Assembly: GCA_024137785.1 (NCBI GenBank)
Contig: JAHRHZ010000042.1
Span: forward strand, 23,222,682-23,286,681
Direction of reading: 5' to 3'
DNA from: Ginglymostoma cirratum
Lineage: Eukaryota
Length of the DNA stretch: 64,000 bases
Shown here one piece after another: positions 208 through 59,489 of this stretch. The translations under genes were made by a program, and so were the position numbers. Within the stretch, counting starts at the first letter, position 1; every line of letters starts with the position of its first letter. The notes below the pieces were generated by a model. That model searched no databases and was not told where the DNA came from. It saw nothing but the letters and a program-made list of their open reading frames with translations.

Positions 208-305
208 CTCGGGCTGTTGGTCGCAGCATTGTCGCCTTGGATGATGAATGACAATATCTGCATAGGACACTTCTTCCTCTATATCGCTGTATTCATTGAC
301 ATGAT
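208..305 (-). CDS. Cytoplasmic exon with tyrosine motifs (DHVNEYSDIEEEVSYADIVIHHPRRQCCDQQPE)
   Basis: 109 nt intron from the previous exon; acceptor aagcag|; open frame with VSYADI; ends at GAG|GTATGA, which is either a donor or a read-through to V then TGA at 202-204. Confidence 0.78.
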
Positions 306-414
306 CTGCTTTCAGTGATTCAAATAAATATATGTGTGTATATACATGCAATTATTGTAATATTAGGGTATTAATATTAAGGAAAGAATTTGAAGTCCAT
401 GAAGTTGAACCTAC

Positions 415-474
415 CTGTTGCATGTTTTGGATTGCTTGGTAGATTACTTCTCTTGACAAATGCATATATTATAT
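415..474 (-). CDS. Cytoplasmic exon with ITIM (x-IIYAFV-KRSNLPSNPKHAT)
   Basis: Acceptor tttaatttgcag|, donor CAG|GTAGGT; 60 nt, phase 1-1; I-x-Y-x-x-V motif. Confidence 0.75.
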
Positions 475-4770: not shown

Positions 4771-7700
4771 CAAAGATTCAACTAGTTTTGTTTTCTAACA
4801 TTCAACTTTTTTCCTTATGTGTTGATAATGCAGCTGTTCACTAAGCACAGTAATCAAATTCTGAACTTGTTTCAGAACAGAAAAAGGTAAAGAGATTCAG
4901 GAATAATCGGTTCAAAGTCACCTCTTTCTTCTGAAGTTAACAACACTTACTACCTGGTCCATTTGTTCATGTCCTGAATTAAACAGGTTAGTTTCTGAAA
5001 GAACTCTATTTTATTTGCTCTTGAATGAATAGTATGAATGGCTTCCACCATCTTCTCTCAAGAATGTGTACCACACAGTTGGCAGTGCTGATTGAAACAC
5101 TGAACTGACTTTATTTGAGACGCAGAAGTCACATTACCAAGGCCCAAAGCAGGTTATCTTTTGAAGAAAATATTGAAACAAGAGCTTAGCTCAATTTGTA
5201 AATGTTGGTACATTCCAGATATTAAGTAGGCATTGCAATAAAACTCATCCCATTGCTGAAAGATCTTTAAAATCTAAGGTTTCAAAGAGCACAGTAGGGT
5301 TGCACCAAAAAAAGCAAGGTATTTAACCTTGGCTAGAAGAATAGAACCAAAGAAAATAACCTGTACTTGAAATGGGGTAAATTCCAAATTAAGACGGAGT
5401 AACAGTAGCTAAAATTTTTCATTATTTTTCAGCAAGTGAAGGCATTCTGCTGGCAGCCCAGTCAGAGTTCCAGTAGCTCTGGTGGTGGTCATTGGTTAGA
5501 CTGTAGCTGCAAATAGCAGCCACCTTACAGCCCAGTGGCCTTTAAGGACAGTTTAGGTAAATTAGGGCAGGCCAGGGCTACGTAGTTAGAGCCTGGTTAT
5601 TGGCACGTGGGCTGGGACGTTTGGGGGTAGTGATGGGTGGGGGAGTGGGGTGCTTAATCATGGAATACCAATCCTGATCTGGTCTTGAAGTTTCATTAAA
5701 GAACAGCCTGCTCTAACCTACTGGGTGGCACTGCCATAGTGTTGGGCCTGCCAAAGTGGACAAAATACCTGCACAGCTGCAAAGGTTCCACATAATTGGC
5801 TCATGAGAGGATCAAGCGACAAACTTTCCCACTGCTGGCAAGGTGGTACATAGCAAGAAGATGTCAAGCCTTCCCTGGCATTTGGGAGCTTCACAACCTC
5901 TTGCCACAGGGCCCAGAAAATTCCAAGCACTGTTACTCCATACTAATTTTGAATTTTCCCCTTTCAAGTACAGGTCATTGCCTCTGGTTCTCCTGTTCTA
6001 GACAAGGTTAAATAGCTTGCTTTTTAGTGCAACCCTACTATGCTTCATGAAATCTTAGATTTTAAAGATATTTTGCCCATGGGATGACTTTTATTGCAAT
6101 ATCTGCTTAATATCTAGAATGTATCAATAATTACAAATTGAGCGAAGTTCTTGTTTCAATATTTTCTTTGAAAGTTCTACTATTTGATCAAATAAATAGA
6201 CATTGCAGAACTCCAAACGATAATTCCAAAGTTCAGGGGATAGGTAGTGTTATTTTATTTGATCGCATAGATACATACTTACAATACTTAATAGATATAA
6301 TGCACATACCTGTTTCAGTGTTGCAATTTTCACTCCTGATCATGGTTTCTGGGCTTGAATAGATGGAAATAAGCAAAATTAGTGTCATTGAAGACACAGG
6401 AGTAGATGCATGAGCTTAATTTTACTTCTTCTAGATTCAGTCACGTTGGGTATAAGATCTAGACTTGACTGTCAACAATTTTTTAATATTTTAGAATGAC
6501 TTACAAGATGGTGCATCACAGCTTTCAGGTCTATTGTAAATCAGATTGACTTCTGTTACCTCACTTATGTTGTGATCATATGGTTGGGCAGACTGAGTTC
6601 CAAATAATAGGAACAACTCTTTCTAGTTCATCTTTATCCACACTTATTTTCCACTTAGAATAGATCAAAACACAATTATCCTTTTTGAAATATGTATTTA
6701 AATATGGAACATTTCATCAGTGCTGTGTCATTACATTTCTGGTTTCACAAGGGCTTCTGTACCAAATGCATTTGAAAATAAACTCCCATCTTGTAGCCTT
6801 GTCACACAAGAATGGCTCCTCTATTTGTTAAGATGGTGTGTGAAATATTTCTAACATGTCAGCACCGCTAAAATAGAAACAAAGACTGAAAAAATGCAGG
6901 TCGACCCAACCAGATAATAATGGAGTAGATAGTTAGTCTAATGATAAATAATTGCATGCTCAGGCACAGTTCGTACCTATGATTTCTTATGTATACCATC
7001 AAAGTTCCTGATGTGTCAGTTTATAGTCCAATTTTTGTTCCAAAGGAAATTTGGGATGAGGAACAAATGTTGGCCTTACTGATTGACTCTCACTTCACAT
7101 GAATGAGTAAAGAGAGAGAGTGTCCATATGCTTTTTTGATCAGTGAAAGAACCAAAGAAACTGCTTGCTATATGGAAGTTGTGATATAATGCAATGTACT
7201 GTAATCAAGTGTCATGGCGCAAACCATATGGTCTGCAATGGGAAAAGAGCAACTAAACAGGACACAGGTTCAATGATCCCTTGGAGATGTCAGGTTTCAG
7301 ACCACAGTTTCTTCAAAATTTAACAAGTAAATAATAGCACTTGATATGTGCAAGGCCAAGCTATATATTTAGCCCAAAGGTTAAGTACTCAGACCTCTGT
7401 TCAGCACACCACTCTCATGCATTGTCTGTCCAGCTTATAGAATGCTTAAAGGACAAAAATGGAGACAGACAGGCTACCAGCTAACAGGAAACACAGAAAA
7501 GTAAAAACATCAACCCGTTAATGAGTACTTGACTCACCCTTTCACCACAATGATGGAAATACCAAAAATTCCGAGAAATTGGATGACATATCCCTGCATG
7601 TGACATGTCCAATTTTCACTGGAGGGGCAAGGTTCAACTCTACATAGCATTTTTCAAGACTAGTACATAGTGAAGAGGAAAGGCAAAGCAACGATAGTGA

Positions 7701-10535: not shown

Positions 10536-10563
10536 CTTGGTTCAATGGATACATTAACTGTAT
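10536..10563 (-). CDS. Cytoplasmic mini-exon (D-TVNVSIEP-S)
   Basis: Strong acceptor tttattttcttttccag| and donor CAAG|GTAAGA; 28 nt, phase 1 to 2; compatible with the TM exon and the next exon. Confidence 0.7.
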
Positions 10564-39500: not shown

Positions 39501-40849
39501 TGATGTGGTGAAAATGATAGAAGTAGCCTGACATCACAAGTACTGCACCCAAATTTGATACTTCCCATCTCTCCAGGTGGCATAATGAGCTCAGTTCAGT
39601 CATCACGCTTATGCAGATTCTGGAAGCAGCTGGACATTTAAATAACCAGCTGCCCACACTGAAATAGGCTTTTAGCGTCAGCGAAATGTAGGACGCAAAG
39701 TGTAGAGACTGACCATGTAACAGTAGGTCTGTTCTCAGTGCATTTCCTTTAGATAGCCAAGATACCCCTTCGGAGAATTGAAATACACATTATCGTTATG
39801 GACTGTCGACACCTTAGGTGTGGAGTCAGGGATCCTTTGGTCATGAGGGGAGTTGTCAGTTGTGCTTTGGAACTATCAACAGGGGAGGACGGGTGTGCAT
39901 AAAAGGTTCGTAAAGACTCAGAATTACTAAGAGATGTCAAGAAATGTATAGAACTGTCAGCTGGCATTTAGAAGTGCCAACCTGTCAAAGAGAGTCCATC
40001 TGTCAAAAAGTCCCAGGAATGTCAACAAGTTTCAAGAAGTGACTAAGAGTTCGACAAGCATTAACCTGTGAAGGAGTGTTAAAATATGTTTTCATTAATG
40101 TGAGTGCTTTGGTAACTACAGTGCAGTCTTTGACATGGAACTTTAAGTAATAGTGTTATATTTTTCCTTTCGGGCATGGGTGCTGAGGATGCTTAATGAG
40201 TTGAGATGATTGTAAAAGAGGGAAAAAGTGGTGGGTGGAAGTAAGCATGAACTTGGCATATGGGAAGAGAGGGCATTGAATATTGGTAAAAGGCATTAGG
40301 TTGCAATGGATGGCATGGGTGGGGTATAGAGTGTGTGGGATGATGAGAGTGGGCAGTGGTAAGCATAAGGGATATTTTACGTTTTAAACACAATTTTTAA
40401 ATGTTGGCAACAGTAGAGTCCTGAGGCAGGCTTTCTGCACAGTCCAACTCAAGAACTTGCAAACTCTTAAACTCTTCCGGGGTCACCCAGCCTAATTCCC
40501 AATCCAGCCCTTGTCCCCAAAGCAAAAATCAGAAATGCATGGCAGCTGATTTAAAGGTTAGATACAGAGCAGGGGCTTTGTCAGCTTCTGTGCGCCCGAA
40601 CCACAAATGTAAGTTTGGCTCAAATGTTTGTAAAAACATCTACAGAGCTTAGCCTGATTTGAAAAGAATACATAAGGCAGTGAAAGAATGGAACATGCAA
40701 AATAAGCTCAGGAGTAAGAACACTTATAAACACATGACGATGAAGGACTATTGTCACACTGGCTAGTGAAAACCACATTGTTTTACAGCTCGCTATTGAT
40801 CTCAATGTAAAGGTTAACACCTATAACCAAAGACTTGCTTTAAGTTTAC

Positions 40850-40951
40850 CTTTTAATTGTCTCTTCCAGATCAGACAAAAGTATATTGCTACCACACTGA
40901 TAAATCCAATAACACCAATGAGTGAAGATACAACGTAAAGCAACCAATGAT
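40850..40951 (-). CDS. Exon 5: transmembrane segment DHWLLYVVSSLIGVIGFISVVAIYFCLIWKRQLK
   Basis: Acceptor atttctttcacag|, donor AAAG|GTAAAC; 102 nt, phase 1-1; about 25 hydrophobic residues with no charged residue, followed by a KR..K stop-transfer. Confidence 0.9.
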
Positions 40952-41459
40952 CTGTGAAAGAAATAATAATTAACCTTGAAGTAATGATGAATGGCAACAG
41001 ATGCAAAATGTAAATAAAATGAATAATATTTAAAATGTTTGGAAATATTTCTGCGAATGTTATATGATTGCAAACTTCAAATTTTTGCTTGACAAAAATA
41101 TTATCATTTTCTTCAGAAATCATTACAACTTTTGTGCCTAACATACACTGCAGTTAGTAGATAAAACTGCACTACATTAGTTTTCTATTTTCTTTTCACT
41201 ACCTTACAAAGCACTGCAGAAAAGCAGAAGGACAGCTTAAATAGATTGATTCACAATGTGTATTAATTTGTAAATGATTAAACATCAGAAATAGGCTTAT
41301 TTACTATAGCTTTAAGTAGTTGAATATTTCAATTTTACAAATTCTGAAACAAATAAAGAAGATGCTAAATATAATTAATCTGTGTTCCTATTTCCTAAAA
41401 TAATTCTTCTGTAACAAGCATCAAGAGCTTTACACATGCATTAGTACATCGATCCTTAC

Positions 41460-41765
41460 CTTCCCAAAAAGCCATTAACGAAACACTACCGTTTGTCCAG
41501 CCATAGCTGTTATTTGCTACACACCAGTAAATTCCTGCATCTTGAGATTGGAAGTGTGCCATCGTTAATTTTGAACTGCTTGATCCAGTTGAAGTGTAGT
41601 TTGTCCAATTCTTCAACCATGTTACCGTGGCGACTGGATTACTATCCACAGAGCATCTCAGTTCCACAAATGAATTTTTGGGGACAGTGATACTGCCATT
41701 GGTCCCGAGATGGTAACTGTCATTGTTTTTCAACTTGTATGTTATTGTTGGATCTAGTGGCCCAT
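41460..41765 (-). CDS. Exon 4: third Ig domain, C2/I-type (CD22/Siglec/MAG-like)
   Basis: Acceptor tttatgtgtag|, donor GAAG|GTAAGG; 306 nt, phase 1-1; motifs LRCSVDSNPVATVTWLK and QDAGIYWCVANNSYG. Confidence 0.92.
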
Positions 41766-42036
41766 CTACACATAAAGAAAATGCAAACAATTTTTTGTAT
41801 AAACAATAACTCTCACACACACAGATACATGCTGGCCAATTAATATACGTAACATCTACAAATTACATCTACATATTACATAACACATTTATAAAAGAAA
41901 AACGTTTCAAATTGCTTCACAGAAGTCCAATCAGACAAACATTAACACTGAGCTAAGGAACAAAGTATAAGGAACTGCAGCTACAATCTTGCTCAAAGAA
42001 GAAGGCTGTCAGGATTGTTTTAAAAGAGAGTGGGGG

Positions 42037-42062
42037 GAGAGGGAGAGAGAGAGAGAGAGAGA
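42037..42062. repeat. (GA)n microsatellite
   Basis: Direct inspection. Confidence 0.85.
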
Positions 42063-42109
42063 CAGATGGGGGTATATACGGAGGGAATTTCGTATTTTGA
42101 CATCTACAT

Positions 42110-42490
42110 GATATATAAGGTGCATGAGATTCTGAGGAGAATTGACAGGGTAGATAGAAAGCAGCCGTTCTCCTCAGTTAGAATTTCAGTAACAAGGGGC
42201 ACACTTTTAAAGCTGTACATAGGAGTTTAAAGTGGTTTTGAAGAATTTTTGTTTTCACCAGAAGGTGGTGGGAGCCCGGAATGCACTTCCTGGGACAGCA
42301 GTTGAGGTGGATAATCTTGTAAAGTATTTTGAAAAAGTACTTCGATAAGCATTTGAAATTTCAAAGATTCGAGGCTATGGATCTAGTGCTGGAAAGTGGG
42401 ACTGGTTTAGATTAAATATAGATTTTTTTTTTGTTAGTGTAGACTTTATGGGCCAGAGGGCCTCTTCTACATTGCATGATTCTATGATCC
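42110..42490 (+). mobile_element. CR1 3' fragment within a larger decayed antisense LINE region (about 41900-44200)
   Basis: VHEILRRIDRVD remnant and tail gattctatgat. Confidence 0.65.
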
Positions 42491-44502
42491 AGCATATTTT
42501 GAATCAATTATGGATTGGAGAGGTCAATATTAGAGGGTTGTAGGTCTGTAGGAGATTGCAAAGATGGGCTGGAACAAGGCTATGGAGTCAGCAGAATGCA
42601 AGGATGAGAATCTTAAAATCAAGAGATTGGTGGACTAGAAACCAATACAAGTTAGTACACAGTGACATCAAAGAGAGTGGAACTTGGTGTGGTTAGGATA
42701 CATACCGTGAAGGCGGACAATATTGCCAGCTTGTCAGTAAGAGGTCATTCTGATAGAAAAGATACACGACTGGAAGCTGATCTCAGCATAAACTGGAATA
42801 AAATGACGCAAAATGTCTGTTTCACCCAGAGGCAATGATCAGGGAAGATGGATGGAATTTAGCAGGCAATGAAGCTTTTGGTGGGAGACAAATGCAATGG
42901 CATCAGTCTTTCAAATGTTTAATTAGAGGTCATTGTAGGTCTTCCAGAACTGGAGCTCAAATATGTCGTCTACCAAAAAACGGACATGGAGGAGTCAGGT
43001 GAGCGATGGCAATGCAAAGTTGGATATTGTTAGTATGCATATGAAATTAGCATTGTTTCTCAGGAAAATCTCAGCAATGTAGGTGACAGGTGGGAGAAGT
43101 TCAAAGAGAGATCCATGAGGATACCAGAGGTAATGGTGTCACACAGATATGAGTGAGCGTAAATGAGGGCAATTATACTTATTTGGCTAATAGAGGAAAG
43201 ATATTTGAGGAGTCCAGTGTGGTTGACTGCTGTCACATGCTGCAAAAAGATTGAGAAGGTTAAAGTGCAGGAGTATACCTGAGTCATAATTACAAATGAC
43301 TTTGCTTTGGTTTATTTCTATGCTGTAGCATTGGAACCCAATTGAAAAAGTTCAAACAAAGAGCAATATGAAAGATGGAGATGGTTATCGGAAGGCTTCG
43401 GAGAAGAAAGGGAAATTGAAGACATGTTTAGATTTTTGAGAAATGGTGATGTCATCAGATTTGACAATGAATAGCTGAACAAATTATGCATCATAAATGT
43501 TTATACCTTTGCCTTTTGGATTTAGAACGTGAAAGTGCTCACTGTGGTGGGGAAACCACTAAAGTGGGAAAGAGTACTAAGAAGAGGACCACCAAAGGCA
43601 TAGTTGAAGGAATGACTGATCAGATTTTTGGCTACATAAGTAGATAAGAAATGTAAGAAAAAAAGGTTGGACAATGCGGAGTTTGGAACTGCCACTACAA
43701 TGACAAAAGTGAATGCTTTCCCCATAAGTGGGCACAGAAGGACTGGGTTACCAGCTTGGAAGAAGGATGTACATAGTGTGGGATACAACCAAGTAATATG
43801 AGATTACATTGTTTGTGATTGGAATAGGGAAATTGGGAGGTTGCATAAGTTGGGCAAGTTGGACTGGCAACTGTGAATATGGATTGCAGAGTATATAGAG
43901 ATTGAGGGGCCAACAGTCAACAAGAGGGCGTGAACTTAGAGGAGAAAGATCAAGAATGGGTTACTGAGATAAAGAGCAAAATCATCAAAGATGAGAAGCT
44001 GCTCAGTGCAAGAAGCTATTGAAGGGATTCTTGAATGACAGAGCGAGCTCATGGTCTACTCTTGTTCCTGTTTTCTATGTTTCTATGAAATAGGTAGAGG
44101 CTTGAAAGGTGGTAAAGCTCTATGGAGCTTTTACAGGACAGATAAGAGGGATAGAACAAGATAAAGGGCAAAATATGCCAAAAATGTGAGTGGACAGACA
44201 TAACTGAGATTTGGTGATAAACCCAATGCTGTCAATTGGGCATTTTGGATGGGTCCGGTGATGGAAGGTATATTCAGACAGAATGACTGTTTTGATATGT
44301 TGTATACAATGCTCTATTGTAACAACAATTGTTTTGTATACAAACGGACACGGGGCAGTTCACAAATAGGAGCACGGCACAGACACTCCCTGGTTGTAAG
44401 CAGAGACTAATGAGGAGACAATAAGAAAAAGACCAGACTTAAAGTAGATATCTTTATCATTACATTTTATGCAATGGGCAAAATGCTAAAGATCATACTC
44501 AC

Positions 44503-44805
44503 ACATAACATCTAGTTTGATCTTTTTTGTTACTGGCTGTTTGAAAATGACATGATTTATCTGACACATACAGACAGTTCCATGGTCTGTCACTTGAGGG
44601 ATGATCTGAAATTGGCTGGTGACAACAGTTTTACCCTTAACAATTCCTTCCAAGGTTGAGACAGTGATGTTTGTCATCATGTTTGTTCCATTACAGGTCC
44701 AGGAAAAGGAGATGTTCTCAGAGCACAACCCCTGGACAGAGCAGGTCAGGACAGACTTTTGTCCAGCAACCAAACTACCATTCATAATGGAAATTTCAGA
44801 CAGTT
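44503..44805 (-). CDS. Exon 3: second Ig domain, C2-type (Siglec/CD33 domain-2-like, some C1 features)
   Basis: Acceptor ttctttccctcag|, donor ATGT|GTGAGT; 303 nt, phase 1-1; motifs GSLVAGQKSVLTCSVQGLC, FSW, PQVTDHGT, CQINH, TKKIKLDVMY. Confidence 0.9.
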
Positions 44806-45137
44806 CTGAGGGAAAGAAGAAAAGAAATACAATTTGTAATTTTGGTAAAATCGTGTCGCATCTGTAGTTAAATAAATTTTCATCTAGATTAAAGGAATCA
44901 AAAATCAAAATGTACGTTAGTGAATTACACTAATGTCATTTTAGCTAGCTGCTGTGTCAGGATCTTTTGCTGCAACTTTTCGATAGAAATTGTCTAATTA
45001 GAATGACTCACGTACCACACTCCTATCTTCCACTTTACTTACAAGGTAACTGTAATGCAACAGTAAGACAAGTTGATGGTGTATTAATTGCAGCGGAAGC
45101 TGGTTCTAAATGAGTATGTGTTGATCACTATATTTTT

Positions 45138-46020
45138 GGATTCCTTGCTGTGATTAACACCTAGTCAATGTAACATACTTCCAAATTTGCTGATTGTATA
45201 TTTCTGTCACTTTTTGTTACATTACTTCATGTTTGCCTGGGAGCACTTTATTTTGAGCCCAATTCCCCTGGGGCTATATACTGTAGTTCTACTCTAGTGA
45301 CATCAACAACTGGCACACATACAGGAATGTTCAAGGCCACTTGGAGAAGTTAGAGGTGAAGACAACTGAAGCTTATTGGAAATCTTCATGAACACAGCTG
45401 CAGGCTTCCACTCAATATCATTGGACAGAAGTCATGTGTAATTTGCAATTTTCCTTTGTATATTACACACTGTATGTAAGGTCCTGTCAAGGTCACCTAG
45501 TTTTGAAAAATCCTGTCCTTTAGTAGAATTCAACTTTGATTAAATGACTGCAAATTAAGTAGCATTCACTTCCTATTCATAAGATTTTTGTTAACCAATA
45601 CATTTAATATGTTTACTACTTGTCAGTAGAATTGTTTGGTATCTTGTATGTTAACTCTAGAAAGCATTTATTGACTAGTGTGTAACTGACAGTTAAAATA
45701 TGGCAAGATCAATTTCAGAAACAAATTGAGCCAAAACGTTAAACATAAGGGCAGTGCAACCAAAGATTGATAAGCTCAAAGTTTCTCTTGATAGTAAGTA
45801 GACTCATTTGCTGGCATGTTCTGGTTCATCAAAAGTATTTTAAAACATGCTGTTTCAGTGGAATGACTGCTACTTGCCTGCAGATAATCAATTAAACTCC
45901 TTAACTGCTCTATCAAGAACAAGTTCCATGAAGTAATGTAACAAAAAGTGACAGAAATATGCAATCGGCAATTTTAGAAGTATGTTACATTGACTTGGCA
46001 TTAATCACAGCAAGGAATCC
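45138..46020. repeat. Inverted repeat: 94 bp arms at 45138-45231 and 45927-46020
   Basis: ggattccttgctgtgattaa...acattacttcatg and its reverse complement; 7 mismatches in 94 counted by hand. Confidence 0.9.
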
Positions 46021-47094
46021 GAACAATTTCCATGTTGGTAGTTGGGTCGCTGTTGTGACTGAATACTAGCTCAGGCAGCATCCTGATGCCGATCAAGGAG
46101 CCACACTTCCATCTCATTTTAAACACCCACTGCCCCTCTTTGCAGTTCTCACTCCACAATGACAGTCTGTCAGCTGGAATTTCTTTCTATTTTTAAATTG
46201 TTGCTATGCCTTCAGAAGATATCTTAGCCACTAATCAGTCCGCAAATCAAAAAACATGTCACGTATCAGGCACCAATGCAACAGAGGGTCAGGACACAAA
46301 AATGTATGTGACATTGGAGTCCTGACTTAAAATTCAGTCAGTGGTGTATGAGTTTGTGTTCTTTTTGTTCACGTTGCACAATTATGAGTCAAATATTGCA
46401 AGTTTCTTTCTAGCAATTTTCACTGATTGATTTTAATTGGTGTTTTTACATTTTTTCCAATTGCATGAATAAAGCATCTTCATTGAAGCAAAACCTCCCA
46501 CGTATCCCACAGAATAATGATGGACATATTTGACACTGAGGCACAGAGCTATATGAATAAGTGATCATTAGCTTCAGCAAAGGGGCTTGTATCAAAAGAG
46601 TTGTAATAGAGAAGAAATGGAGAAATGAGAGGTTTAGGGAGGAATTTCCAAAATGCAGATCCTCGGCAATTGAAAACACAGCTGCAAATGGTGAGACAAA
46701 GCAACTCAAGATGAGTGAGTGAATTGAAAGAATCTCAGAGAGTTGTTGGGATAGGGAAAATCACAGAGATAGAGAGGAGTCAGGTCAATGAAGGATTTGA
46801 AAAAAGGAATGAACATTTAGAATTCTTGGCATTGATGAATTGGGAAGCACTGTTGGTCAATGAGCGCACGGTTGGTAGATTAATGGAATACGAGATTTTT
46901 TTTGTGCAACAGATGTGGACAATGTAATTAGCAAAATCTTTTTTTCTGGAGTGTCAATTAACAACTAACAGAAAAATGACAAATAACACAAATAGTGCAC
47001 GGCAAGATGTGAAACTCAGAAGAAAATAATAATCCCAAATAAGTTTTGAGATTCCTAAATAATTATGAATAGAATCAACAAAGCTATACTACTT

Positions 47095-47122
47095 CTGATG
47101 AAGGGTTTAGGCCCGAAACGTC
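47095..47122 (+). ncRNA. Minimal type-I hammerhead ribozyme motif in a solo Penelope pseudo-LTR (47090-47222)
   Basis: CUGAUGA-A-GGGU(UUAG)GCCC-GAAA-CGUC, with flanking ACUU/AAGU able to form stem I. Confidence 0.65.
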
Positions 47123-48158
47123 AAGTTTTCCTGCTCCTATGATGCTGCTTGACCTGCTGTGCTCATCCAGCCCCATGCTTGTTATCTCGGATTCTCCAGC
47201 ATCTGCAGTACCTTTTATCTCCTATACTGCAAATGTATTGTTTCTCTGCAAACCGGGTTTCTCATCTAATATGTGACACAACAAGACAGAGTGCTGCACG
47301 CTTTATTACTATTATTCATTAGTAGATCGCTCTCCTATGCCTGGATCAGTCTTACACAATACCATTAAGTACTGAAAACAGGGTGTGATTCCTGTAGTGA
47401 CTCTTTTAGCTTGAAGCTGCATTCTTTACATAGAAATTCTCACATTTACTTCCTGAAATCCCTGTTTGATATTTCCTTATACTTTATCACAATTTTGTCC
47501 AATTTAATTGTCGTCTGTTGATATATAACTTGGTTTCGATAAAGGGTTTGAAACAAAATATTAATCTAGCTCTTCTTACAGAAATCGAAGAACCAGCTAT
47601 TTATTTTCAACATTTGCTGGCTGTATAAAAAGTTGCATTATTGATTCCATATAATTGGTCATATATTGAAATACTGGATCAACTTTAGGTGTATTCAATT
47701 TTGAATTGAATTGCAAAGCAACAGATAACAAAGTCTTCAAAAGTTACATGTGCTTGTATGTAAGATAAACAGGTATAATACTTAAATAAATTCCATAAAA
47801 TTAAAGGAGCTGATGTCTTGTGGTATGAATAGAATAGACAATGAAAGTGGCAGAAATGCAAAATTCATTTAAGTGATAGCCTATATCTCCCCATTGGTTC
47901 CACAGTGGCAAGTTATCGTAAACCTGGTTCAAGAAACAATATTACAGACACACAATGAATTGCTTCCCGCATTCTTCTAGCTAGCAATAGTTTGTTTGAA
48001 TAATCTGGTCTGATATTGAATGTGCTTTCCAACAATGAATTATTTCAGAAATGGTTTGGTGTTAATATTACTGTACCCATAATGAATACAGACTTAGTGC
48101 TTTCACCCAGTACAATCAAATGTCTTTCTACTTATTACTTAAAATGTAAATACTTTAC

Positions 48159-48509
48159 CGTAAATTTGTATCTTTGTTCCTTGTCCTTTTCTCTCTAATG
48201 GAGGGTAGATATTCGGTACTTGCACCACACAGATATATTTATAAGCAGAATGATGAAAAGAAGCATTTTCAATCTTCAGTGGTATGGCACAAAGTTTGAA
48301 ATCATCCAGAGGACCATTAGGAACACAGGTCAGCTGCTTCTTCTCATAGGCGGTAATATTCCCTGTTGGTGGATCCCTCTTCCAACTAGCATGGACCCAG
48401 TCACCATCAGTTCCATTGTAAATCATAAATGTGCAGTTAATTGACACTAACTCTCCTCTCAAGGCAGTGACCAGAAGTGGCTGAGTCACCTCACCAATGA
48501 ACCGAACAC
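48159..48509 (-). CDS. Exon 2: V-set Ig domain with germline J-like motif (GVRFIGEVTQP...SINC...SWKR...YICVVQVPNIYPPLERKGQGTKIQIY)
   Basis: Acceptor ttccatcag|, donor TACG|GTAAAG; 351 nt, phase 1-1; canonical B-strand Cys, C-strand Trp, F-strand YxC and G-strand GxGT; inside ORF 48139..48531. Confidence 0.92.
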
Positions 48510-49168
48510 CTGATGGAATAAACAAATTCATTTTTAGCTGGCTTCAGTTAGAATTTCTTTCTAAAGAAATAGGAAACTTTGAAAACTTAAACAGCAGTGA
48601 ATTTGAAATACCCTTTGTGTTGGATCACATGTCAAAGACATCATTAAAAATACCTCTCCTCTCTGATTTAATTCTAAGCTACGCAACGGTTTGTTTCCAG
48701 GTTTTCTGCAGTAATTTTTTTTCGTGTTTTGAATTTGTTTCTTTTTATTAAACCGTATGGATAGGATGTCACCATCAAAATCCATTGGAGATCTTTATTT
48801 CCAGCTCGCTGAAAGTGGCTGCTATCAGGTTGAACCATGTGCAAAGACAGACCCACTTTTAATTGAAATCTAAAAAAAATCCTTTAAATATTCTGAATCC
48901 TGCCAGCGTTAGGGTTCACAATCAATATACAAAGTATCGTTTGAACTGGAATGTAACTTTTACACAGGAGGCTTAACCCAAATACCGTCATGCGGGCCTT
49001 TGAACAGTGATCTCAATCGAATTGTCCAAATGACATGGTTGTGTCTCACTTGCTTTCTCTGCAGTTCCATACCATATAGAAAAGCTGAAATATCTTAAAA
49101 GGGGTAATCGAATGCCTACAATGCCAGCACCAAATGAATGTACCAATGTTCTGAGCAGAGCATCTTAC

Positions 49169-49217
49169 CTTGAACGGCTGTTTGCAAAATGAAAAGCAGC
49201 TTCAGCAGGAGCTGCAT
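49169..49217 (-). CDS. Exon 1 (signal peptide) of IgSF receptor: MQLLLKLLFILQTAVQ-G
   Basis: ATG at 49217; 49 nt hydrophobic leader; phase-1 donor CAAG|GTAAG; joins in frame to the V exon. Confidence 0.9.
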
Positions 49218-49218
49218 C

Positions 49219-49525
49219 TTTCACTGTTTCCGAACGTTCCGAAAACTGTTTCAGTTCCAGACCTGAAGCAGGAAGAGTGTTGTTCTCGGAGCGTTTGAGA
49301 CATCAGTACAGATGCTTTGCCGGGGGAATAATTTATATTTCAGCCCGAAACGGGCAGAAACTGCGAAATGCCATGGGTTTGAGCTACTGTAAGGAAGGAA
49401 GTTACGTGGGAAGCGAAGAGAGTTTGTTTTTCCTCTCTACCTGGGTTCTGTCAATTCTGACGCGGCGACGTGCGAGAAATATTTTGGAGAAAATTAAAAG
49501 CTGAAAATGCAAGCGGGAACTGAAT
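49219..49525 (-). promoter_or_regulatory. Proximal promoter/5'UTR with ETS-IRF composite element and ETS sites
   Basis: GGAACTGAAAC (EICE consensus GGAAnnGAAA) at 49248-49258 on the minus strand; further GGAA cores (CAGGAAG near 49269, AGGAAGT near 49396); locally CpG-rich; immediately upstream of the ATG. Confidence 0.55.
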
Positions 49526-49779
49526 CCAGCTTTTGTCTTTCTGCTGCACAGGAGTTGATCCCAGCTCTGAATGTTGCTGGAAAGAATGACTTCAATTCCT
49601 CTTTTCACACCCCAATTAGAACAGTGTGGGTACGTGACAAGATTTAGAACTGTGGCTTATATTGATTCACATCTCTCTGCATCCCTTTGTTATCGGTATT
49701 ATTTTCTAACTACACGCCTGTGCAAACTAAATCCCTCACTTGCTTGAACGTCATCAATTAAATCAGCAAAATAGGCATA

Positions 49780-50805
49780 GTTAATGACTAGTTTTCGGGT
49801 TAAAGAAAGATTTATAATGCAATTCCCCAGGGGTTGGTATTGGGGGGGATCCTTGTTTTTCATGATATGGATTAATGTTCTGGAGCTCGGTGTGGAGGGG
49901 AGAATATCCCAGTTTGCAGGTGACGCTGCATTTGGAAGAATTATAAACTGTGAGGAAGAGAGAATGGAACTCCAAAATTGCCTCGATAAGTTTGTGGAGT
50001 GGACGGATAGGTGACAGATGAGCTTCAATGCAGAAAAGTGTAAGGTTTGGAACTTTGGTTTGGAAGAACATTGCGAGACAATACAAAGTAGGGGGTACAA
50101 TTCGAAAGGTGCAGGAGCAGAGGATCTGAGGCGACATGTACACAGATCATTGAAGGTAGCTGAACGGGTGGAAAGAACAATAAATAAACACTCCAGTATT
50201 CTGGGCCATATTCAAACAGGCATAAAAGTACATAAGCAAGGGCTGTGATGTTGAACTTGTACAAGGCACTTTTTCGATGTCAACTGGAGTATTGTGTATG
50301 GTTGCGCGCACCACTTTATAGGCAACATGCGAATGTGTGAGAGATAGTGCAGAAGCTATTTGTGAGAATCGTTCCAGTAATGAGAAATATCAGCGATGAG
50401 GATAGATTGAAGATGTTGGGGCTGTTCTTCCTGGAGAGAGGCAGGCTGAGGGGAGATCTGATTGAGGTTTTCAAAATCATTAGCAGGCTGCATAGAGTAG
50501 ATATGGTGAAGCTATTTCCACTCATACAAGTTACGAGTACGAGAGTACATAGATTTAAAGTGATGTGTACAGGAAGCAAAGGTGATGTGAGGAAACCTTC
50601 CCTCTCGCCCCCCAGCAAGCAGTTAGGGTATGGAATGTACTGCCTGGAACAATTGAGGCATTCAAAACAAAATGTCATTTTTGATGGTTAGGGCATACGA
50701 GAATATGGGGAAAAGGCAGTGAATTGGCATTAGATAATCAAGCTGGTGCAGGCACAATGGGCTGAATGGCTTTCTTCCACTCTGCAATAATTCTGTGATT
50801 CTGTA
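49780..50805 (+). mobile_element. CR1 LINE fragment upstream of the functional promoter
   Basis: ISQFAGDA, FNAEKCKV and LRGDLIEVFKI remnants. Confidence 0.85.
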
Positions 50806-52039
50806 AACTATGCAGAATAATGTTTTAATAATAACATTTTATAGTTTAAGTTACAAAAACACATCTCCCACTATCATCCCAGACTCAAACACTCATTAGA
50901 TTTTATTTCATTCATTAGATTTGTGTGTCACTGGCTGGGTCAGCTTTATTGCAAGTCAGAGGGCAGTTAAAGGTCAACGACAGTGCTGTGGGTCTAGAGT
51001 CACATGTAGGCCAGACCCACAGAGCCTTTCCTTAAGAACGATAAGAAAACAAATGGTTTCTCTGACATGCCACAACAGTTTCACAGGCATCATTAAATGC
51101 CTAACTCCAGATTTTTTTTTATTGAATTCAAATTCCACCATCTTCCCTGGACAGGATTTGAACCAGGGTCCACAGATCATTCACTGCGTCTTGAAATTAA
51201 GACTCTAGCAACTAAATCCCAAGTCCATCACTTCCCCACCTTCAAAGATTCAGCTCCAGAACTGAGTTGTACCAGCCTTTATGCATTCCTTGAACTTGTA
51301 GTAAAAATTACTCTCATGCTTGTTTAGAACCCTCAGTCTCCATGGGTCTATGTTGAATCTTAAAGTGTGGGTTTTCTCCTGATCCGAAAACAAATTTCAC
51401 AAAGACATGCTTTTGTGTGAACTCAAAGCATTGGAGATGGCTTCTAGCTTGGATTTTCAAACACATGTCTTTCGTGCACTCAGTGGCCAGATTTTGAGTT
51501 GACCCTTTACTTATGCTGTCGGGGTAACACATTTGAAACTGTATCACTGGCAAAAATTCAAATTACTGCATCTCACAAAGTGACTGTGGGCACTTTCCCC
51601 ATTTTGGTAACGAGAGCTCCACCTTGTGCATAACTGCAACATCACACTGTTAAGATTTCTGATAAGAGTGACGGGGCTCACAACTAACATTCTGATTCAG
51701 TGGTGTTGGCATCTATTTCGGTAACTAACATCTGTATTCCACTAAGATTTTATAAATGTAACAGCAAGATGCTAATGACAAGATAAGCTGTTTAGTTTGT
51801 CATGATGATTTAAAAACAAGCATTGATCATGACAAAGGGATATATATATATATTCCCAACTATTCCTCGATAAAATATAATTGAATCTTTTAGATCAATG
51901 GAAACCGCTGGATGGCATTTTGGTCTAATGACTTATGACTTAACAGGGAGGAGAACATCAATAATTAAGCCCCATTGTTCCCCAACCAATCACAAGATTG
52001 TAAACACCCAATTTAAACCACCAAGGTAAACAAATTACA

Positions 52040-53756
52040 CAGATAACAAGGTGTGGGGCTGGATGAACACAGCAGGCCAAGCAGCATCATAGGAGCAGGA
52101 AAGCTTGACGTTTCAGGCCTGGACCCTTCATCAGAAATGGGGGAGGGGAAGAGGGTTCTGAAATAAATAGGGAGAGAGGGGGAGGCGGATAGAAGATGGA
52201 TAGAGGAGAGGATAGGTGGAGAGGAGGCAGACAAGTTGAAGAGGCGGGGATGGAGCCAGTAAAGGTGAGTGTAGGTGGGGGGGGGTAGGGAGGAGATAGG
52301 TCAGTCCAGGGAGGACGGACAGGTCAAGGGGGCGGGATGATGTTAGTAGATAGGAGATGGGGGTGGGGCTTGAGGTGGGAGGAGGGGGTAGGTGACAGGA
52401 AGGACAGGTTAGGGAGGTGGAGATGAGCTGGGCTGGTTTTGGGATGCGGTTGGGGGAGGGGAGATTTTGAAGCTTGTGAAATCCACATTGATGCCATTGG
52501 GCTGCAGGGTTCCCAGGCTGAATATGATTTGCTGTGCCTGCAGCCTTCGGGTGGCATTACTGTGGCATTGTAGCAGGCCCAGGATGGACATGTCGTCTGA
52601 GGAATGGGAGGGGGAGTTGAAATGGTTCGCGACTGGGAGGTGCAGTTGTTTGTTGCGAACTGAGCGCAGGTGTTCTGCAAAGCGGTCCCCAAGCCTCCGC
52701 TTGGTTTCCCCGATGTAGAGGAAGCCACAACAGGTACAGCGGATGCAGTATACCACATTGGCAGATGTGCGGGTGAACATCTGCCTGATGTGAAAAGTCT
52801 TCTTGGGGCCTGGGACTGGGGTGAGGGCGGAGGTGTGGGGGCAGGTGTAGCACTTCCTGCGGTTGCAGGGAAAAGTGCCGGGTGTGGTGGGGCTGGAGGG
52901 GAGTGTGGAGCAGACAAGGGAGTCGTGGAGGGAGTGGTCCCTCCGGAAGGCAGATAAGGGTGGGGAGGGAAAACTGTCTTTGCTGGTGGGGCCTGATTGC
53001 AGATGGCGGAAGTGTCGGAGGATGATGCGTTGGATCCGGAGGCTGGTGGGGTGGTACGTGAGGACGAGGGGGATTCTTTTTTGGTTATTATTGCGGGGAT
53101 GGGGTGTGAGGGATGAGTTACGGGAAATGCGGGAGACACGGTCGAGGGCGTTCTCGACCACTGGTGGGGGGGACGTTGCGGTCCTTGAACAATGAGGACA
53201 TCTGAGATGTACGGGAGCGGAATGTCTCATCCTGGGAGCAGATGCGGTGGAGACGAAGGAATTGGGAATAGGGGATGGCATTTTTGCAGGAAGGTGGGTG
53301 GGAGGAGGTGTATTCCAGGTAGCTGTGGGAGTCAGTGGGCTTGAAATGGACATCGGTTTCTAGGTGGTTACCCGAGATGGAGACAGAGAGGTCCAGGAAG
53401 GAGAGAGAAGTGTTGGAGATGGTCCAGGTGAACTTCAGGTTGGGGTGGAAGGTGTTGGTGAAGTGGATGAACTGTTCGAGCTCCTCGTGGGAGCACGAGG
53501 CGGCGCCAATACAATCATCAATGTAACGGAGGAAGAGGTGGGGTTTAGGGCCAGTGTAGGTACGGAAGAGGGATTGTTCCACGTAACCTACAAAGAGGCA
53601 GGCATAGCTTGGGCCCATGCAGGTACCCATGGCCACCCACTTTGTCTGTAGGAAGAGCAGCTTTCCTGCTCCTCTGATGCTGCTTGGCATGCTGTGTTCA
53701 TCCAGGTCTACACCTTGTTTTCTCAGATTCTCCAGCATCGGCAGTTCCTACTATCT
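52040..53756 (-). mobile_element. Penelope-like retroelement, 5'-truncated, with inverted pseudo-LTR at 53658-53756
   Basis: RT motifs AMGTCMGPSYACLF and LRYIDD; GIY-YIG VYCIRCTCCGFLYIGETKRRLGDRFAEH; ORFs 53118-53738 and 52409-53353 overlap across a frameshift. Confidence 0.93.
52107..52134 (-). ncRNA. Hammerhead ribozyme motif in Penelope pseudo-LTR
   Basis: CUGAUGAAGGGUCCAGGCCUGAAACGUC on the minus strand. Confidence 0.55.
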
Positions 53757-53799
53757 CTTTTATTCCTAGATTTTGTTTCCTGTCTACTAACTAATTTTA

Positions 53800-54350
53800 T
53801 GTTCATTTCAATACACTGCTCCCAATCCCATGCATTTTGTTTTTACACATTTGTCTCTAATGTGGAACCTTGTTGAAAGCCTTGTGAAAGTATAAAAAAG
53901 GTACACCCACTAGCTATGTTCCCCCCCGCCGCCACCTCATCACTATTAGCACATTCAAAAATTTCCAGTACCTTTGTCAAGCGTTATTTATCTTTTATAA
54001 ATTCATGCCGGCTGCATCCGATTCTACCAGTGCGTTCTAAGTGCTCTGCTATAAAATGCTCAATAATGGACTCTACCATCTTTCCCACTACTGACATCAG
54101 ACCCACTAGTCTGTAATTCCCTGCTTTCTCTCTACCTTCCTTTTTAAATAGATGGGTTACATTAACTACACTCCAATCTGTGGGAATTGATCCACAGCCC
54201 TTAGAATCTTCGAAGATGACCACCAATGCATTCACTATCTCTAAGGCTAACTTTTTACGTATTCTGGGATGGAGATTATCTGGATCTAGGGATGTATTGG
54301 CCTTCAATCCCATTAATTTCCACAGCACTACTTCTCCACTAATACAGATT
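53800..54350 (-). mobile_element. CR1 LINE internal fragment
   Basis: DPDNLHPRI..IPTDW..LFKKEGREKAGNYRLVGLMSVVGK. Confidence 0.8.
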
Positions 54351-57300
54351 TGCTTCCCCAAAGTCTCGGATTACATCTGTCTTTGTAAGTGCTTGATCTA
54401 TTTTCCATGATTATATTAATGCAGTAGTGGGGGGGATGGGGGTGGAGGTGAATAGGTTATTATGTCAAACCAAGTGATTTGACAGAGAACAGAGTTAGTT
54501 TCACTTATTCCTGAAAAGCAGTTTTGACTCTATAAATCAAATCTATCCAAACTGAGACACAACTGCTGGAGTTTTCCTCAAGGTTTGTGAGTAAATTGAA
54601 AATAAAGTAGCTGCAAGTAGGCTATCTTTGAATTGCAGTAACCACCACAGTTTCCTGCCAACTGTGTCACTGCATGTTTAACTTGACGTGATTGGAAATT
54701 ATGGACAGGAAGCTTGCCCTTAAGATTTGCTTCTCTGGGTCTTCAGAGTGTAGTTTGCAGCTGTTGTTAATTTTATGGGTTTTTTTTCCTGGCAGCCTAT
54801 TCCCGTCATTGTTCCAGGTGTGGTAAGAATGCTTCCATTTGGTAAACTTACTTTTTTGCACTTCTCTGAGGTGTCGGATTTATCCTGGTGTTGGCATAAT
54901 ATTGAGTGTGAAACAGCAGGTCCTCATTCAGCCCCTTGAGTTAATTTTAACATTCAATTGGATCACAGCTGGTCTGTATCGTAACTCTATCTACTTGCAG
55001 TTTGTTCATGTGCACAGAGGAATCACCGTGGTGATTCAGAGGCAGTGTGAGCAGGATGGACTAACCACACTTATAATTTAAATTTCGATATCTCTGTTGC
55101 TGACTTATGTACAAACCAGAAAATAGAACCATCTGTCTATTCAAGAAGAATGGGGTGGATTTCCATGGGAATCCTCTTGTTTGTCCATCATAACTTCAGC
55201 TCAGAAGCTGTGCAATTGAGGAAAGAATGCTGTAAAATCTTCATATGCCTCTTTTCTGGTTTCACCCTGTTTCTTCCATTAAATTTCTGTTAGGATGGGT
55301 TTTACGAATTCACCCATGGTCAAAAAACAACAAACTAGCTTTGACAAGAATCACAGAATCGTTCCGGAGATGCATTTTCCAAGGATGTTGAATAAAGAAT
55401 TTGCTTACCAAATTGCCTCCTCATAAATGGAGTCTTTGTAGTTTTTTGTTCTTGCATACCTCCTTGCTCAGTACATTTGAAAATTGTTTCCTTTATCAAA
55501 ATGAAAATCAGCTGTGTAAGCTTCAATGAAAATGTGACTTGGCACTCACACTTGGGATACTGACTAGAATTAGAAACTCTCATTTTAACGTGTATTATGT
55601 CCCAGGCCTGCAAGTGGAAAATGACCATAACTATTGCAAATAGTCCTATTTAGGGTCTCCTCTCCCACAATGGCAGCCTACTAACCACAGTCTCTTTTTA
55701 TCTTTAAGTTGATATAAAATCTTTAGAAGCTATCCCAATCTCTGTGGTTCAATAATTATGTCAGGTATCAAGAACTGATGCAACAGAGGAAAAATAAAAA
55801 GAAATGTACCTGTCATCAAAGTCCTGTATCCAAATAAATTTTCAGACAGTGGTATGTGAGATTTTGCTGTTCTCCCAAGGTAGCTCAAACACTACATCAT
55901 TGAATCAACATTTGACACTAAGACACATAGTTTTGAGGACAAATTATCAATATCAGCAACAAACAAGCCTGTCTTAAATGTGTCTTTGAGGAGGAGAATG
56001 AAGAGCTGGAGAGGATGAGGAAGAAATTTCCAGAATTAAGATCCTAGGCAATTGAACCACAACCTGCAATGTTGAGGCAAGTCAACAAGGAATAAATAAG
56101 TACTTAAAATTGAAAGAACCCAGAGATTTTGAGTGTTGATGGCCTGGAGAAAATTGAGGGCAATGTGTCAGTTCTTTGAAGAACTAGAAATACAGAATAT
56201 ACTTTTTGATTTCAAGGCATTGGTGAACTGGGAAGCAATGTTGATCAGCAGGTTTATGGTTAGAAGGAATTTGGTGTGAATTGGGATATGCACTGAAAAG
56301 TCATGCTGTTTGTGTATTTGATGTAACCAATGGACAACAGTTTTGCTCAGAGTGTTGTGATATCATAAACCTCAGAACTTCAATAAATGTTCATGGATTG
56401 AATGACCCAACAAAAAACAGTGACACGTGGAACACAGCAGCGATAACTGTGTCTGGAATAAGCTATTAAGGACCAAAAGAAAATTGTACAGGAATTGAGA
56501 GTAATCAGCTGTGCCTGGGAGTTGAAACTACATGAACAAAACTACTTTGACACCTGCTTGATAAACTGGCTGGTCTATTGCCACAAAGGACAAGGATTGC
56601 CATGCAGAAGAATTTAAGGAGTTAATCGCAGAAAAGCTGTCAATGCCAAATGTAACAAGGCACAAAGACTTGCAGTAATTTAGATGAAAGGACTTTCAAA
56701 AAATCATCAATAATATCACACATGGACTGATGGACAAAAATCTGCCTGAGAATCAAACACCAGGATCCCCCTTTAGCAGAACTTGGAAGAACAGCACTGC
56801 ATAAGGATCAAACACTTCCAGAGACAGACACTGTTGGTGAAATCTGACCAATTTCCAGCACTAAACAGGCAATAGCCAAGTTAGGTTGTGAGGCTTAACT
56901 TGCTGACTTGAGGGGTCTTGTTTTGATTGCTACATGCGATAAAGTTTAAATCATTTTTCAGTACTTGCCTGATGGTGAGCTTATTTGATAAGTGGCCCAA
57001 TTAAAGGTAACTTGTGGTAATTTACCCACAACCATGTCAATGAATAATCAACAGAAAACAAATGTAATGCAAATAGTACACTTGAAGATATGAAACTTGG
57101 AACAAAATAATTAGCCCCAAAGTTATCGAGATTCATGAATAACTAAATCAACAAAAATATCCTGTAAATTCATTGTTTTTCTGAGGTCTGAGATTTTCAT
57201 CTGCATATGTGACATAATAAAACACATTTCTGCACTGTTTTATTTTTCCTTAGTGAATCAACCCTCTTGTATCAGGAACAGGAGTATGCAACACTGTAAA

Positions 57301-58062
57301 CTGGTTGTGATTCTCCCAATGATCTTTTCAGCCTGACACTGTACTCTTTACATGAGAATTTGTCACATTTACTTTCAGAACTTATCGCAATAGTTTCTAA
57401 TTTCATTATGGTTTGTTGATTATTTATTTGCTGATGGATTGAATCAAATATTACTCTATTCTCGCATTGATGCTGACTAAGCTGCTGTTCATTTCCAACA
57501 TTTGCTGTCTTTTTAAAATCTTATTGCATTGTTGATTTCATATAATTCGTTGTATTGTGAAATAGTGGAACAACATTACATGTGTACAATTTTGAATGCA
57601 ACTTTGCAACTTTTGGAGGTAATGTTTTGAAAAGCTTTGTAAGTAAATGACTGTATCTGTATTCATATTGAAAATATGATGGGAATTATGTTTGAAGCAA
57701 TATAAGACTAGTGAACACCTTTTGCTATGAATGTTGATGATATGTAAAATTAATTTCTGTAATGTCCTTTATTCTCTGTTGACTCAACAGTGGCTACTTA
57801 TCACGAAACTGATTCAGAGATTAACACAAACACAAAATTAGTTTATATTCTTCTCATTAGCATTGCTTGAAATAAACTAGTTTTATATGAAAATGTATCC
57901 AGCCCCACCCCTTTATATGAAAATGTGCTTGCTAAAAATGAATTGCTCCATAAAAGATTTGGTGCAAATGATACTGATTCCAGAATGAATGCAAACTCAG
58001 TACTATTACTCTTTAATACATCAACATCTTTCTACTTATTACTTGAAATGTAAATACTTTAC

Positions 58063-58383
58063 CATAAATCTGTATCATTGTTGCTTGTCCTCTTCTGTCT
58101 AATGGCGAGTAGACACTGGTTAGTTTCACCACACAGTAGAATGATCAAAAGAATTTTTTTCTATTTCCGGTGATGTACACAATGTTTGAAACCACCGAAA
58201 GTAACATCAGAAACACAGGTCAGCTTCTTCATCTCATAGGAGATAATATTCCCTGATGGTGGACCCCTCTTCCAATTAACATGGACCCAGTCAGCATCAG
58301 TTCTATTATAAATCATAAATTTGACACTCCTCTGAAATCACTGACCAGATGTGGTTGTCTCACCTCACAAATGAATGGGTCAC
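58063..58383 (-). pseudogene. V-domain pseudo-exon, paralog of 48159-48509
   Basis: Splice sites are retained (ccag|, G|GTAAAG), but deletions remove the B-strand Cys codon and shift the frame: GDPFICEVRQPHLVSDFRGVSNL* with TGA at 58313-58315. Confidence 0.88.
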
Positions 58384-58532
58384 CTGGCAGAATAAAAGTC
58401 ATCATTTTCAGCTGGTTTCACATTCACATTCTTTCAAAAGAAATAGGAAACTTTGAAATCTCATTTCAAACAATGCTAAAGTTGAAAAATCCTTCCTCTT
58501 GGATCATATGTGAAAAAAAAAATTAAATATAT

Positions 58533-58700
58533 AGATAGCAAGAACTGCAGATGCTGGAGTCAGAGACAAAACAGTGTGGAGCTGGAGGAGCGCAGCAGGC
58601 CAGGCAGCATCAGAGCAGCAGGAAAGTGGACGGGTCGGGACCCTTCTTCAGAAATGATGCTGCCTGGCCTGCTGTGTTCCTCCAGCTTCACACTTTGTTA
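58533..58700. mobile_element. Inverted Penelope pseudo-LTR pair in intron 1 of the duplicate cassette
   Basis: gcagcaggccaggcagcatc ... gatgctgcctggcctgctgtg; absent from the paralogous intron near 48640. Confidence 0.75.
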
Positions 58701-59233: not shown

Positions 59234-59282
59234 CTTGAACTGCTGTTTGCAAAATGAAAAGCAGCTTCAGCAGGAGCTGCAT
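59234..59282 (-). CDS. Duplicate leader exon, intact (MQLLLKLLFILQTAVQ-G)
   Basis: Same peptide as 49169-49217 with one synonymous change (GCC/GCA); donor GTAAG intact. Confidence 0.75.
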
Positions 59283-59489
59283 CTTTCAATGTTTCCGAAC
59301 GTTCCGAAAACTGTTTCAGTTCCAGACCTGAAGCAGGAAGAGTGTTGTTCTCGGAGCGTTTGAGACATCAGTACAGATGCTTTGCCGGGGGAATAATTTA
59401 TATTTCAGCCCGAAACGGGCAGAAACTGCAAAGTGCCATGGATCTGAACTACTGTAAGGAAGGAAGTTACGTGGGAAGCGAAAGAGAGT

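Follow-up and report, generated by a model that had tools for sequence, protein, structure and literature searches.

A joined V-J exon of the nurse shark Ginglymostoma cirratum belongs to a likely inhibitory member of a V-J/C1 paired receptor family

A 351-nt exon of the nurse shark encodes a V domain already joined to its J-like strand, and the question it raises is what kind of receptor such a domain serves. The exon (exon 2, 48159..48509, minus strand, read from 48509 to 48159) lies in a window of 64,000 nucleotides, by which we mean the whole stretch of DNA that was analyzed, on a contig here called C42. It has AG/GT ends, is in phase 1 on both sides, contains no stop, and encodes LTC, then KLC, then HHSAYKYICVVQVPNIYPPLERKGQGTKIQIY. 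A preliminary description of the sequence had proposed a single-exon V-J domain with no recombination signal sequence (RSS), and this was borne out: a scan of positions 40000-50500 on both strands (heptamer with at most one mismatch, nonamer with at most three) found none in or beside the exon, its sole match being a poor one at 43546. The Pfam V-set match of the exon is weak (14.3 bits), and V-set was matched by 11/11 rows of the family alignment. The exon is not a chance reading frame, since its orthologues in whale shark and zebra shark are 85% identical and a spliced transcript contig contains it.

An AlphaFold model of the V domain, built with the 11-row alignment (pLDDT 84.7), has a V-type fold. 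In it, strand F (91-98) is followed by YPP (residues 102-104) and then by strand G (105-108, 112-116), so that YPP takes the FG-loop position expected beforehand. The extra pair of cysteines that had also been noticed is real; the E-strand cysteine is present in 18 of the 18 family rows described below, the D-strand one in 17, and both in 17. The model assigns them to the neighboring D and E strands (61-64 and 71-80), which form a hairpin, and from these positions we infer a D-E disulfide (F-Cys −32 and −20; 48289..48327, minus). This bond may compensate structurally for the short C' and C'' strands of the V domain. A similar D-E cysteine pair occurs in the V domain of NFAM1, a single-domain ITAM receptor; the sturgeon member gave a weak Pfam Ig_NFAM1 match (E 0.019, 15.7 bits, below the cut-off of 27.2), and no match to Ig_NFAM1 above the cut-off was found over the genome. 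Fold searches with the V model were rejected as a means of calling the family, having returned generic Ig V/I matches only (best Z 12.2, with many ties, TCR and lambda V). Among three carpet sharks, the BC and DE loops hold 9/20 variable sites, an excess by permutation (p 0.0015); it was not taken as selection because the comparison was picked once the data had been seen and loops vary more anyway.

The exon belongs to a gene of 10 exons whose 493-aa frame encodes a V domain, a C1-set domain, an I-type domain, a membrane helix, and a tail with ITIM-type tyrosines. The exons, all on the minus strand, were mapped with XP_020370730.2, a whale shark protein of 494 aa that bears a MAG-like name; all junctions of the ten exons are AG/GT, and the frame is colinear with that protein, with an ectodomain identity of 92%. 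Exon 1 (49169..49217; 16 codons plus 1 nt) encodes the signal peptide, as judged from its ATG, GT donor, and match to the whale shark N terminus. Exon 3 (44503..44805) encodes domain 2 (D2), assigned to the C1-set by profile comparisons and by Pfam (29.7 bits with a cut-off of 21, above C2-set_2 at 22.1); its C1 hallmarks are eroded in the window gene and canonical in the paralogue and the bony-fish members. In the inhibitory elasmobranch lineage, D2 lacks the C1 hallmarks and has gained cysteines, and the nurse shark D2 has one more (GLCSE) than that of whale and zebra shark (GLYSE). Exon 4 (41460..41765) encodes domain 3 (D3), an I/C2-type Ig domain that matches Pfam Ig_3 and I-set, as well as contactins and MAG in the PDB, and has no Pfam C1-set match. 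The uncharged membrane helix is in exon 5 (40850..40951), and an intron of about 30 kb separates it from the first tail exon, exon 6 (10536..10563), a cytoplasmic micro-exon of 28 nt identified by homology and splice sites. Cytoplasmic exon 7 (6310..6353) is followed by exon 8 (415..474), with the first conserved tyrosine motif, IIYAFV, by exon 9 (208..308), with the ITIM-type VSYADI, and by exon 10, about 11 kb left of the window on C42, with SEYSVV and the stop. VSYADI and SEYSVV fit the ITIM consensus.

A 1200-nt contig (record 9) of run X5, which we take to be RNA, spans the membrane, D3, D2, and V exons, joined at the exon boundaries. The coordinates of the record are consecutive across the exons, with zero mismatches in the three Ig exons, and the contig is therefore a transcript spliced from the V exon to the membrane exon. 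Splicing of the tail exons is predicted from homology and splice sites. The raw-read runs X13 and X14, of unspecified tissue, had no reads on the V exon and were counted neither way. The introns and flanks (window 1-40000 and 50000-63500) hold LINE/Penelope-type and SINE fragments.

About 70 kb to the right of the V exon, on the plus strand and head-to-head with the window gene, lies paralogue B. It has an open V exon, a canonical C1 exon, and I-type and membrane exons, with a short tail that lacks an ITIM; its membrane helix starts SFPVRSV, with an Arg at the helix start. An ITIM-tailed form and a short-tailed form with a membrane Arg are thus both present, at the level of sequence. The two ectodomains are only 36% identical, so a shared ligand is not required. 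The last exon of paralogue B (window +131090) has a stop that shortens the tail by about 13 residues relative to the Chiloscyllium plagiosum protein. Among 10 candidates scored genome-wide, four are copies of the V exon, and a stretch of 75 kb on C42 contains them all: the window gene, two broken copies (one at 58384-58064, the other about 13 kb to the right of the window), and paralogue B. The four copies of the D2 exon are all at the same locus. The broken V-exon duplicate (58064..58384, minus; frameshifts, about 75% DNA identity) has its own leader exon (59234..59282, minus), 98% identical to exon 1. In this tandem duplication of leader and V exon (57922-59489 versus 48019-49423), the leader region is 92.5% identical and the frameshifted V region 74%, which suggests conversion of the promoter and leader. 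There are additional broken copies 4-24 kb beyond the right end of the window, and a run of about 430 N occurs in the flank (window +141800 to +142250).

We suggest that the window gene encodes an intact, spliced receptor of 493 aa that is quite probably the inhibitory member of a paired immune-receptor family, with a ligand that is likely a protein and likely recruitment of SHP-1/SHP-2 through its ITIM-type motifs. Behind this reading stand the observed gene structure, the splicing from V to membrane exon, the domain classes, the tail motifs shared from sharks to coelacanth, and the head-to-head paralogue with its Arg. The V domain would engage the ligand, perhaps with the face of the FG loop; the tail tyrosines, once phosphorylated, would recruit SHP-1/SHP-2; and the opposing Arg-bearing partner would borrow an adaptor of the FcR-gamma/CD3-zeta type. 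These steps, and expression on leukocytes, are what known families would predict. By analogy, the receptor likely dampens immune cells, and its relative is likely activating. The same logic (ITIM with SHP, Arg with FcR-gamma) was shown for PIR-B and PIR-A (PMC2213385), and PIR-A/PIR-B, LILR, and NITR all share with the shark genes an ITIM form beside a short-tailed form with a membrane Arg. NITRs also have single-exon V-J domains (bioRxiv 10.1101/2021.06.11.448072). However, the ectodomains of these families are C2 arrays, or V-I without a C1 domain. The V-J plus C1 architecture and the inhibitory/activating pair are the main points that go beyond the preliminary description.

Both forms, to judge from the protein sequences, are present in other fishes, namely other sharks, paddlefish, gar, and coelacanth. 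Members of the family were found in the sharks Rhincodon, Stegostoma, Chiloscyllium, Hemiscyllium, Heterodontus, Heptranchias, and Pristiophorus, and in Rhinoraja, Narcine, Mobula, Latimeria, Huso, Acipenser, Polyodon, Lepisosteus, Atractosteus, Amia, and Albula (accessions include XP_020370730, XP_064424813, and XP_015192865). Homologue searches, each word-based one of which missed known members, returned no tetrapod, chimaera, or non-elopomorph teleost member. The automatic names conflict (MAG-, Siglec-, SIRP-, CADM-, and ROBO-like), most being MAG- or Siglec-like, and the family corrects these misleading MAG, Siglec, and SIRP annotations. No description of this receptor family was found in the literature searched; it may be listed elsewhere, e.g., among VJC1 genes. 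We compared 18 rows, comprising 16 full-length database proteins and the two genes of the nurse shark locus, with partial, fused, and near-duplicate records and unrelated long matches left out. Eleven rows have long tyrosine tails, six a membrane Arg and a short tail, and one (gar) a Lys and a short tail; the Albula model, with its poor membrane segment, was classed by its tail. Tyrosine motifs equivalent to those of the shark tail occur in Heptranchias, Rhinoraja, Narcine, Mobula, and Latimeria, and four-tyrosine tails in Polyodon, Lepisosteus, and Albula. Besides paralogue B, the Arg with a short tail occurs in Pristiophorus, Chiloscyllium, Huso, Polyodon, Amia, and Latimeria, and the Lys with a short tail in Lepisosteus. 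Within pairs, the ectodomains are 97% identical in coelacanth and 98% in gar, as expected of paired receptors, with values of 31% in paddlefish and 36% in the shark. In its membrane segment, shark B is similar to the sturgeon, paddlefish, and bowfin members. The Arg forms of sharks and ray-finned fish are, however, ungrouped in a tree of the ectodomains (4 label changes, where the least possible is 2); an old activating gene and repeated re-pairing are therefore both possible, and a single ancient origin of the on/off pair does not follow from the tree.

It had been suggested that the loop resembles the MYPPPY loop of CTLA-4/CD28 and that the ligand may be a B7-family or other protein. In its strong form, this would make the window gene a multi-domain checkpoint receptor akin to the CD28 family that binds a B7-family ligand through YPP, which we regard as unlikely. 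The segment from the F-strand Cys through the FG loop to GQGT (48175..48231, minus; YPP at 48207-48199) has prolines at F-Cys +5, +9, and +10. The distance from the Cys to GxG (15) equals that of CD28-family exons, and the three carpet sharks have only 2/20 variable sites in the FG loop and G strand. The CD28-type exons of the genome mostly have the same distance of 15, but their prolines are at +7 to +9 and their extra cysteines at about −47 and at −32 to −26; the proline pair at +9/+10 is therefore two residues off the MYPPPY register, and the disulfide differs. Lack of conservation of the motif had been named as the refuting outcome, and this is what is seen outside sharks and rays: Y/F-P-P is present in 9/9 rows from sharks and rays (in one of them displaced by a residue) and in 0/9 others, among which two coelacanth rows have VPP. 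The single P at F-Cys +5 is more widespread (16/18 rows; 7/9 outside sharks and rays), and GxGT is found in 18/18. The G strand of the shark exon has GQGT, without the glycan site of the NGT motif with which it had been compared.

For the comparison with other V exons of the genome, the sample consisted of 40 of the 150 V-set matches listed, 5/7 V-set_2 matches, and the neighboring lone V exon, of which 42 were usable and were labeled by motif. Against these 42, the highest scores of the family profile (47-36 bits) went to seven V-J exons with proline loops; Siglec-like, IgL, and NKp30-like exons (31-29 bits) and TCR exons (25 bits or less) came below them, and the best-scoring exon has CD28 as a PDB match. 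Cutting the FG loop and G strand out of the profile, however, left only one of the seven at the top (31 bits), the rest being interspersed with TCR and Siglec-like exons. A proline loop together with GxG is present in at least nine sampled exons, and joined V-J domains with prolines are therefore common in this genome. Among the Atlas neighbors of the V domain are PD-1 and CTLA-4 clusters, at 0.92, a value shared by further V-set clusters. A 53-row V tree unites the 12 family rows in a single branch (95/95), separate from the CD28/CTLA4, CD28H-like, NKp30-like, Siglec-like, and Ig/TCR exons of the genome; the branch is outside the Ig/TCR branch (82/99), and the tree leaves its place among CD28-type and NKp30-type exons open. 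The genome has its own CD28/CTLA4-like trio on contig C145, with CD28H-like exons elsewhere. PMC11599192 defines the CD28 family by a single V domain. Its members, especially CD28H, CD28HL1-3, and CD28X, share with the window gene the single-exon V-J domain, the proline FG loop of equal length, GxG, and occurrence in cartilaginous and basal bony fish, with none found in humans. They have one Ig domain, whereas the window gene has three (V, C1, and I spliced together), prolines off register and unconserved outside elasmobranchs, a different extra disulfide, a paired Arg form, and another locus. A protein ligand is still likely, and the V domain is not a sialic-acid-binding Siglec V; the motif argument for B7 is weak, and the CD28H-like lead is mostly lost without the FG loop and G strand.

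Another possibility is derivation from a Siglec or MAG gene: the V domain would have been exchanged or have ceased to bind sialic acid, the stalk would still be MAG-like and the tail Siglec-like, and the product may serve adhesion as much as immunity. The best structural match to a model of the whole ectodomain (whale shark protein) is MAG Ig1-3 (Foldseek E 2.7e-17; VIA Z 16.8, rmsd 10.8, 286 aligned), ahead of nectin-like proteins and then SIRP-gamma (Z 13.5). This match favors a Siglec-derived stalk or an adhesion role and counts against the immune-inhibitor reading. D3 matches MAG in sequence at rank 6, D2 scores 24.1 bits with CD22, level with other C1 domains, and most members bear MAG- or Siglec-like names. 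Siglecs (MAG, CD22, and the paired Siglec-5/14) also share the order of V, C1-like, and C2/I domains and an ITIM-type tail, and the near-identical paired ectodomains of gar and coelacanth are Siglec-like as well. Against this derivation, which we consider improbable, the F-Cys +1 residue is V, E, I, or K in 18/18 rows, never the Arg needed for sialic acid, in agreement with what had been described for the shark exon; a Siglec-like exon of the same genome does have the Arg. Pfam Ig_CD22 was unmatched in 11 V rows and nine full proteins, and the window gene has a canonical B-F disulfide with a J-like G strand. In the V tree the family lies away from Siglec-like exons (the deep branch having only 81/81), and the Siglec-type V exons of the genome are on contigs C155, C171, C172, and C93. 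The D2 profile gave MHC/Ig/tapasin-type C1 domains 49-61 bits, among them tapasin-like (57) and IgL (56) and, in second and third place, two C1 domains of contig C61 (60.6 and 57.7), compared with 20-36 bits for nectin D2 and 17.6 for a Siglec-like D2, represented by one, possibly degenerate, example.

Among the closest known organizations to the inhibitory and activating pair is that of the SIRPs, with a joined V-J then a C1-set domain, three Ig domains, an inhibitory/activating pair, and several tyrosine motifs in the tail. Besides the structural match to SIRP-gamma (Z 13.5), D2 matches SIRP at 22.9 bits, and NCBI names the sturgeon members SIRP-like. However, the shark D3 is I-type and not C1, the family has the extra D-E cysteines, and its activating forms mostly have Arg at the helix start, whereas SIRP-beta uses Lys and DAP12. 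SEP-domain genes, the marker used for the SIRP neighbor NSFL1C, gave matches on contigs C87 and C52 and none on C42 among the best candidates, which were those scored. The origins of the SIRPs are stated as unknown in PMC9652883.

The preliminary description had also considered the exon relevant to pre-RAG VJ ancestors of TCR and Ig. The V exons with the two highest scores come from V-J/C1 genes of a cluster on C61, possibly the PRARP/VJC1 genes; among non-antibody, non-JAML PDB chains, CD28 is the best match of the C61 V domain. Three V-J/C1 genes with IPPP loops lie at C61:1.85-2.03 Mb. The V and D2 profiles both score high on this cluster, and the gene could be a relic close to the non-rearranging V-J/C1 gene into which the RAG transposon inserted, and a single-exon V-J followed by a C1-set is the architecture sought in PMC10751288 and PMC12227049. 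UrIg2 ranks 2 of 6014 PDB matches for the sturgeon member, with both V and C1 aligned, and the V profile and V model score best on TCR alpha and lambda V in the PDB, where such chains dominate. Nevertheless, we regard a relic of this kind as very improbable: the V tree puts the family outside the Ig/TCR branch (82/99), no F/W-GxG J motif occurs in the family (K, R, E, T, V, or N precedes GxG), and the gene has an ITIM tail and an I-type third domain. PRARP/VJC1 and UrIg/UrIg2 resemble the window gene in the single-exon V-J and C1, but they lack its extra I-type domain and its ITIM tail. The UrIg genes described in PMC12227049 carry no constant domains other than C1 and map to the MHC or antigen-receptor complex. 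The link to a pre-RAG ancestor is therefore weak, as joined V-J genes are a broad known class (CD79, NITR, SIRP, CD8, NKp30, and PRARP are listed in PMC11599192), the V tree sets the family apart from Ig/TCR, and the locus is not on a contig with MHC-like C1 domains.

The neighborhood bears on the last two alternatives. C42 carries nectin-1 (20 Mb from the locus), a LIM2/MP20-like gene about 253 kb left of the window (L032:6320-6902, minus), and, 60-89 kb left of the window, a CBS-like gene, a divergent second cystathionine beta-synthase; another CBS is on contig C175, and one exon of the C42 gene is 64% identical to that copy. MHC-like and Ig/TCR C1 domains, labeled by eye, are on other contigs, which speaks against the RAG-related relic. 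These neighbors may point to the nectin/JAM/Siglec paralogon rather than the MHC. Human LIM2 is in the Siglec cluster, and the LIM2-like gene about 250 kb away accords with a Siglec/MAG derivation. Two synteny markers were rejected: ETF (on contig C81) did not settle the placement, and a CD3-epsilon profile matched unrelated Ig domains. A multi-exon gene on the minus strand of C42, about 215-265 kb right of the window, is presumably otoancorin/mesothelin-like; three of its exons had no Pfam match.

Returning to the likely inhibitory receptor, we conclude that it is a member of a V-J/C1 paired family and not a close antigen-receptor ancestor. A joined V-J exon with a proline loop is ordinary by itself, and what merits further attention is the conserved family of paired V-J/C1 receptors. 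The search for the gene from which antibodies and TCRs arose is directed at non-rearranging V-J/C1 genes, and a low-copy, single-locus pair retained from sharks to coelacanth is a tractable system for studying early on/off control of leukocytes, with its ligand and adaptor. A bolder interpretation, to which we lend little credence, is that of an undescribed paired family dating back to the first jawed vertebrates, in which a CD28/PRARP-type V-J and a C1 domain are combined with SIRP/Siglec-type on/off signaling. It would be a surviving link between co-stimulatory receptors and SIRPs and act as a checkpoint pair whose ligand is a self protein, B7-like or other; sharks, rays, sturgeons, gar, bowfin, bonefish, and coelacanth would have retained it, with none found in tetrapods.

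A lone V exon lies about 89 kb right of the window on C42 (L025:9237-9599, minus). It has extra cysteines, with CC in strand F, and a weak match to Pfam V-set_CD47 (E 0.0028, below the cut-off). Its protein may be CD160-, CD47-, or B7-like and is a candidate linked ligand. A short hydrophobic last exon 9 kb downstream of it could be a GPI signal.
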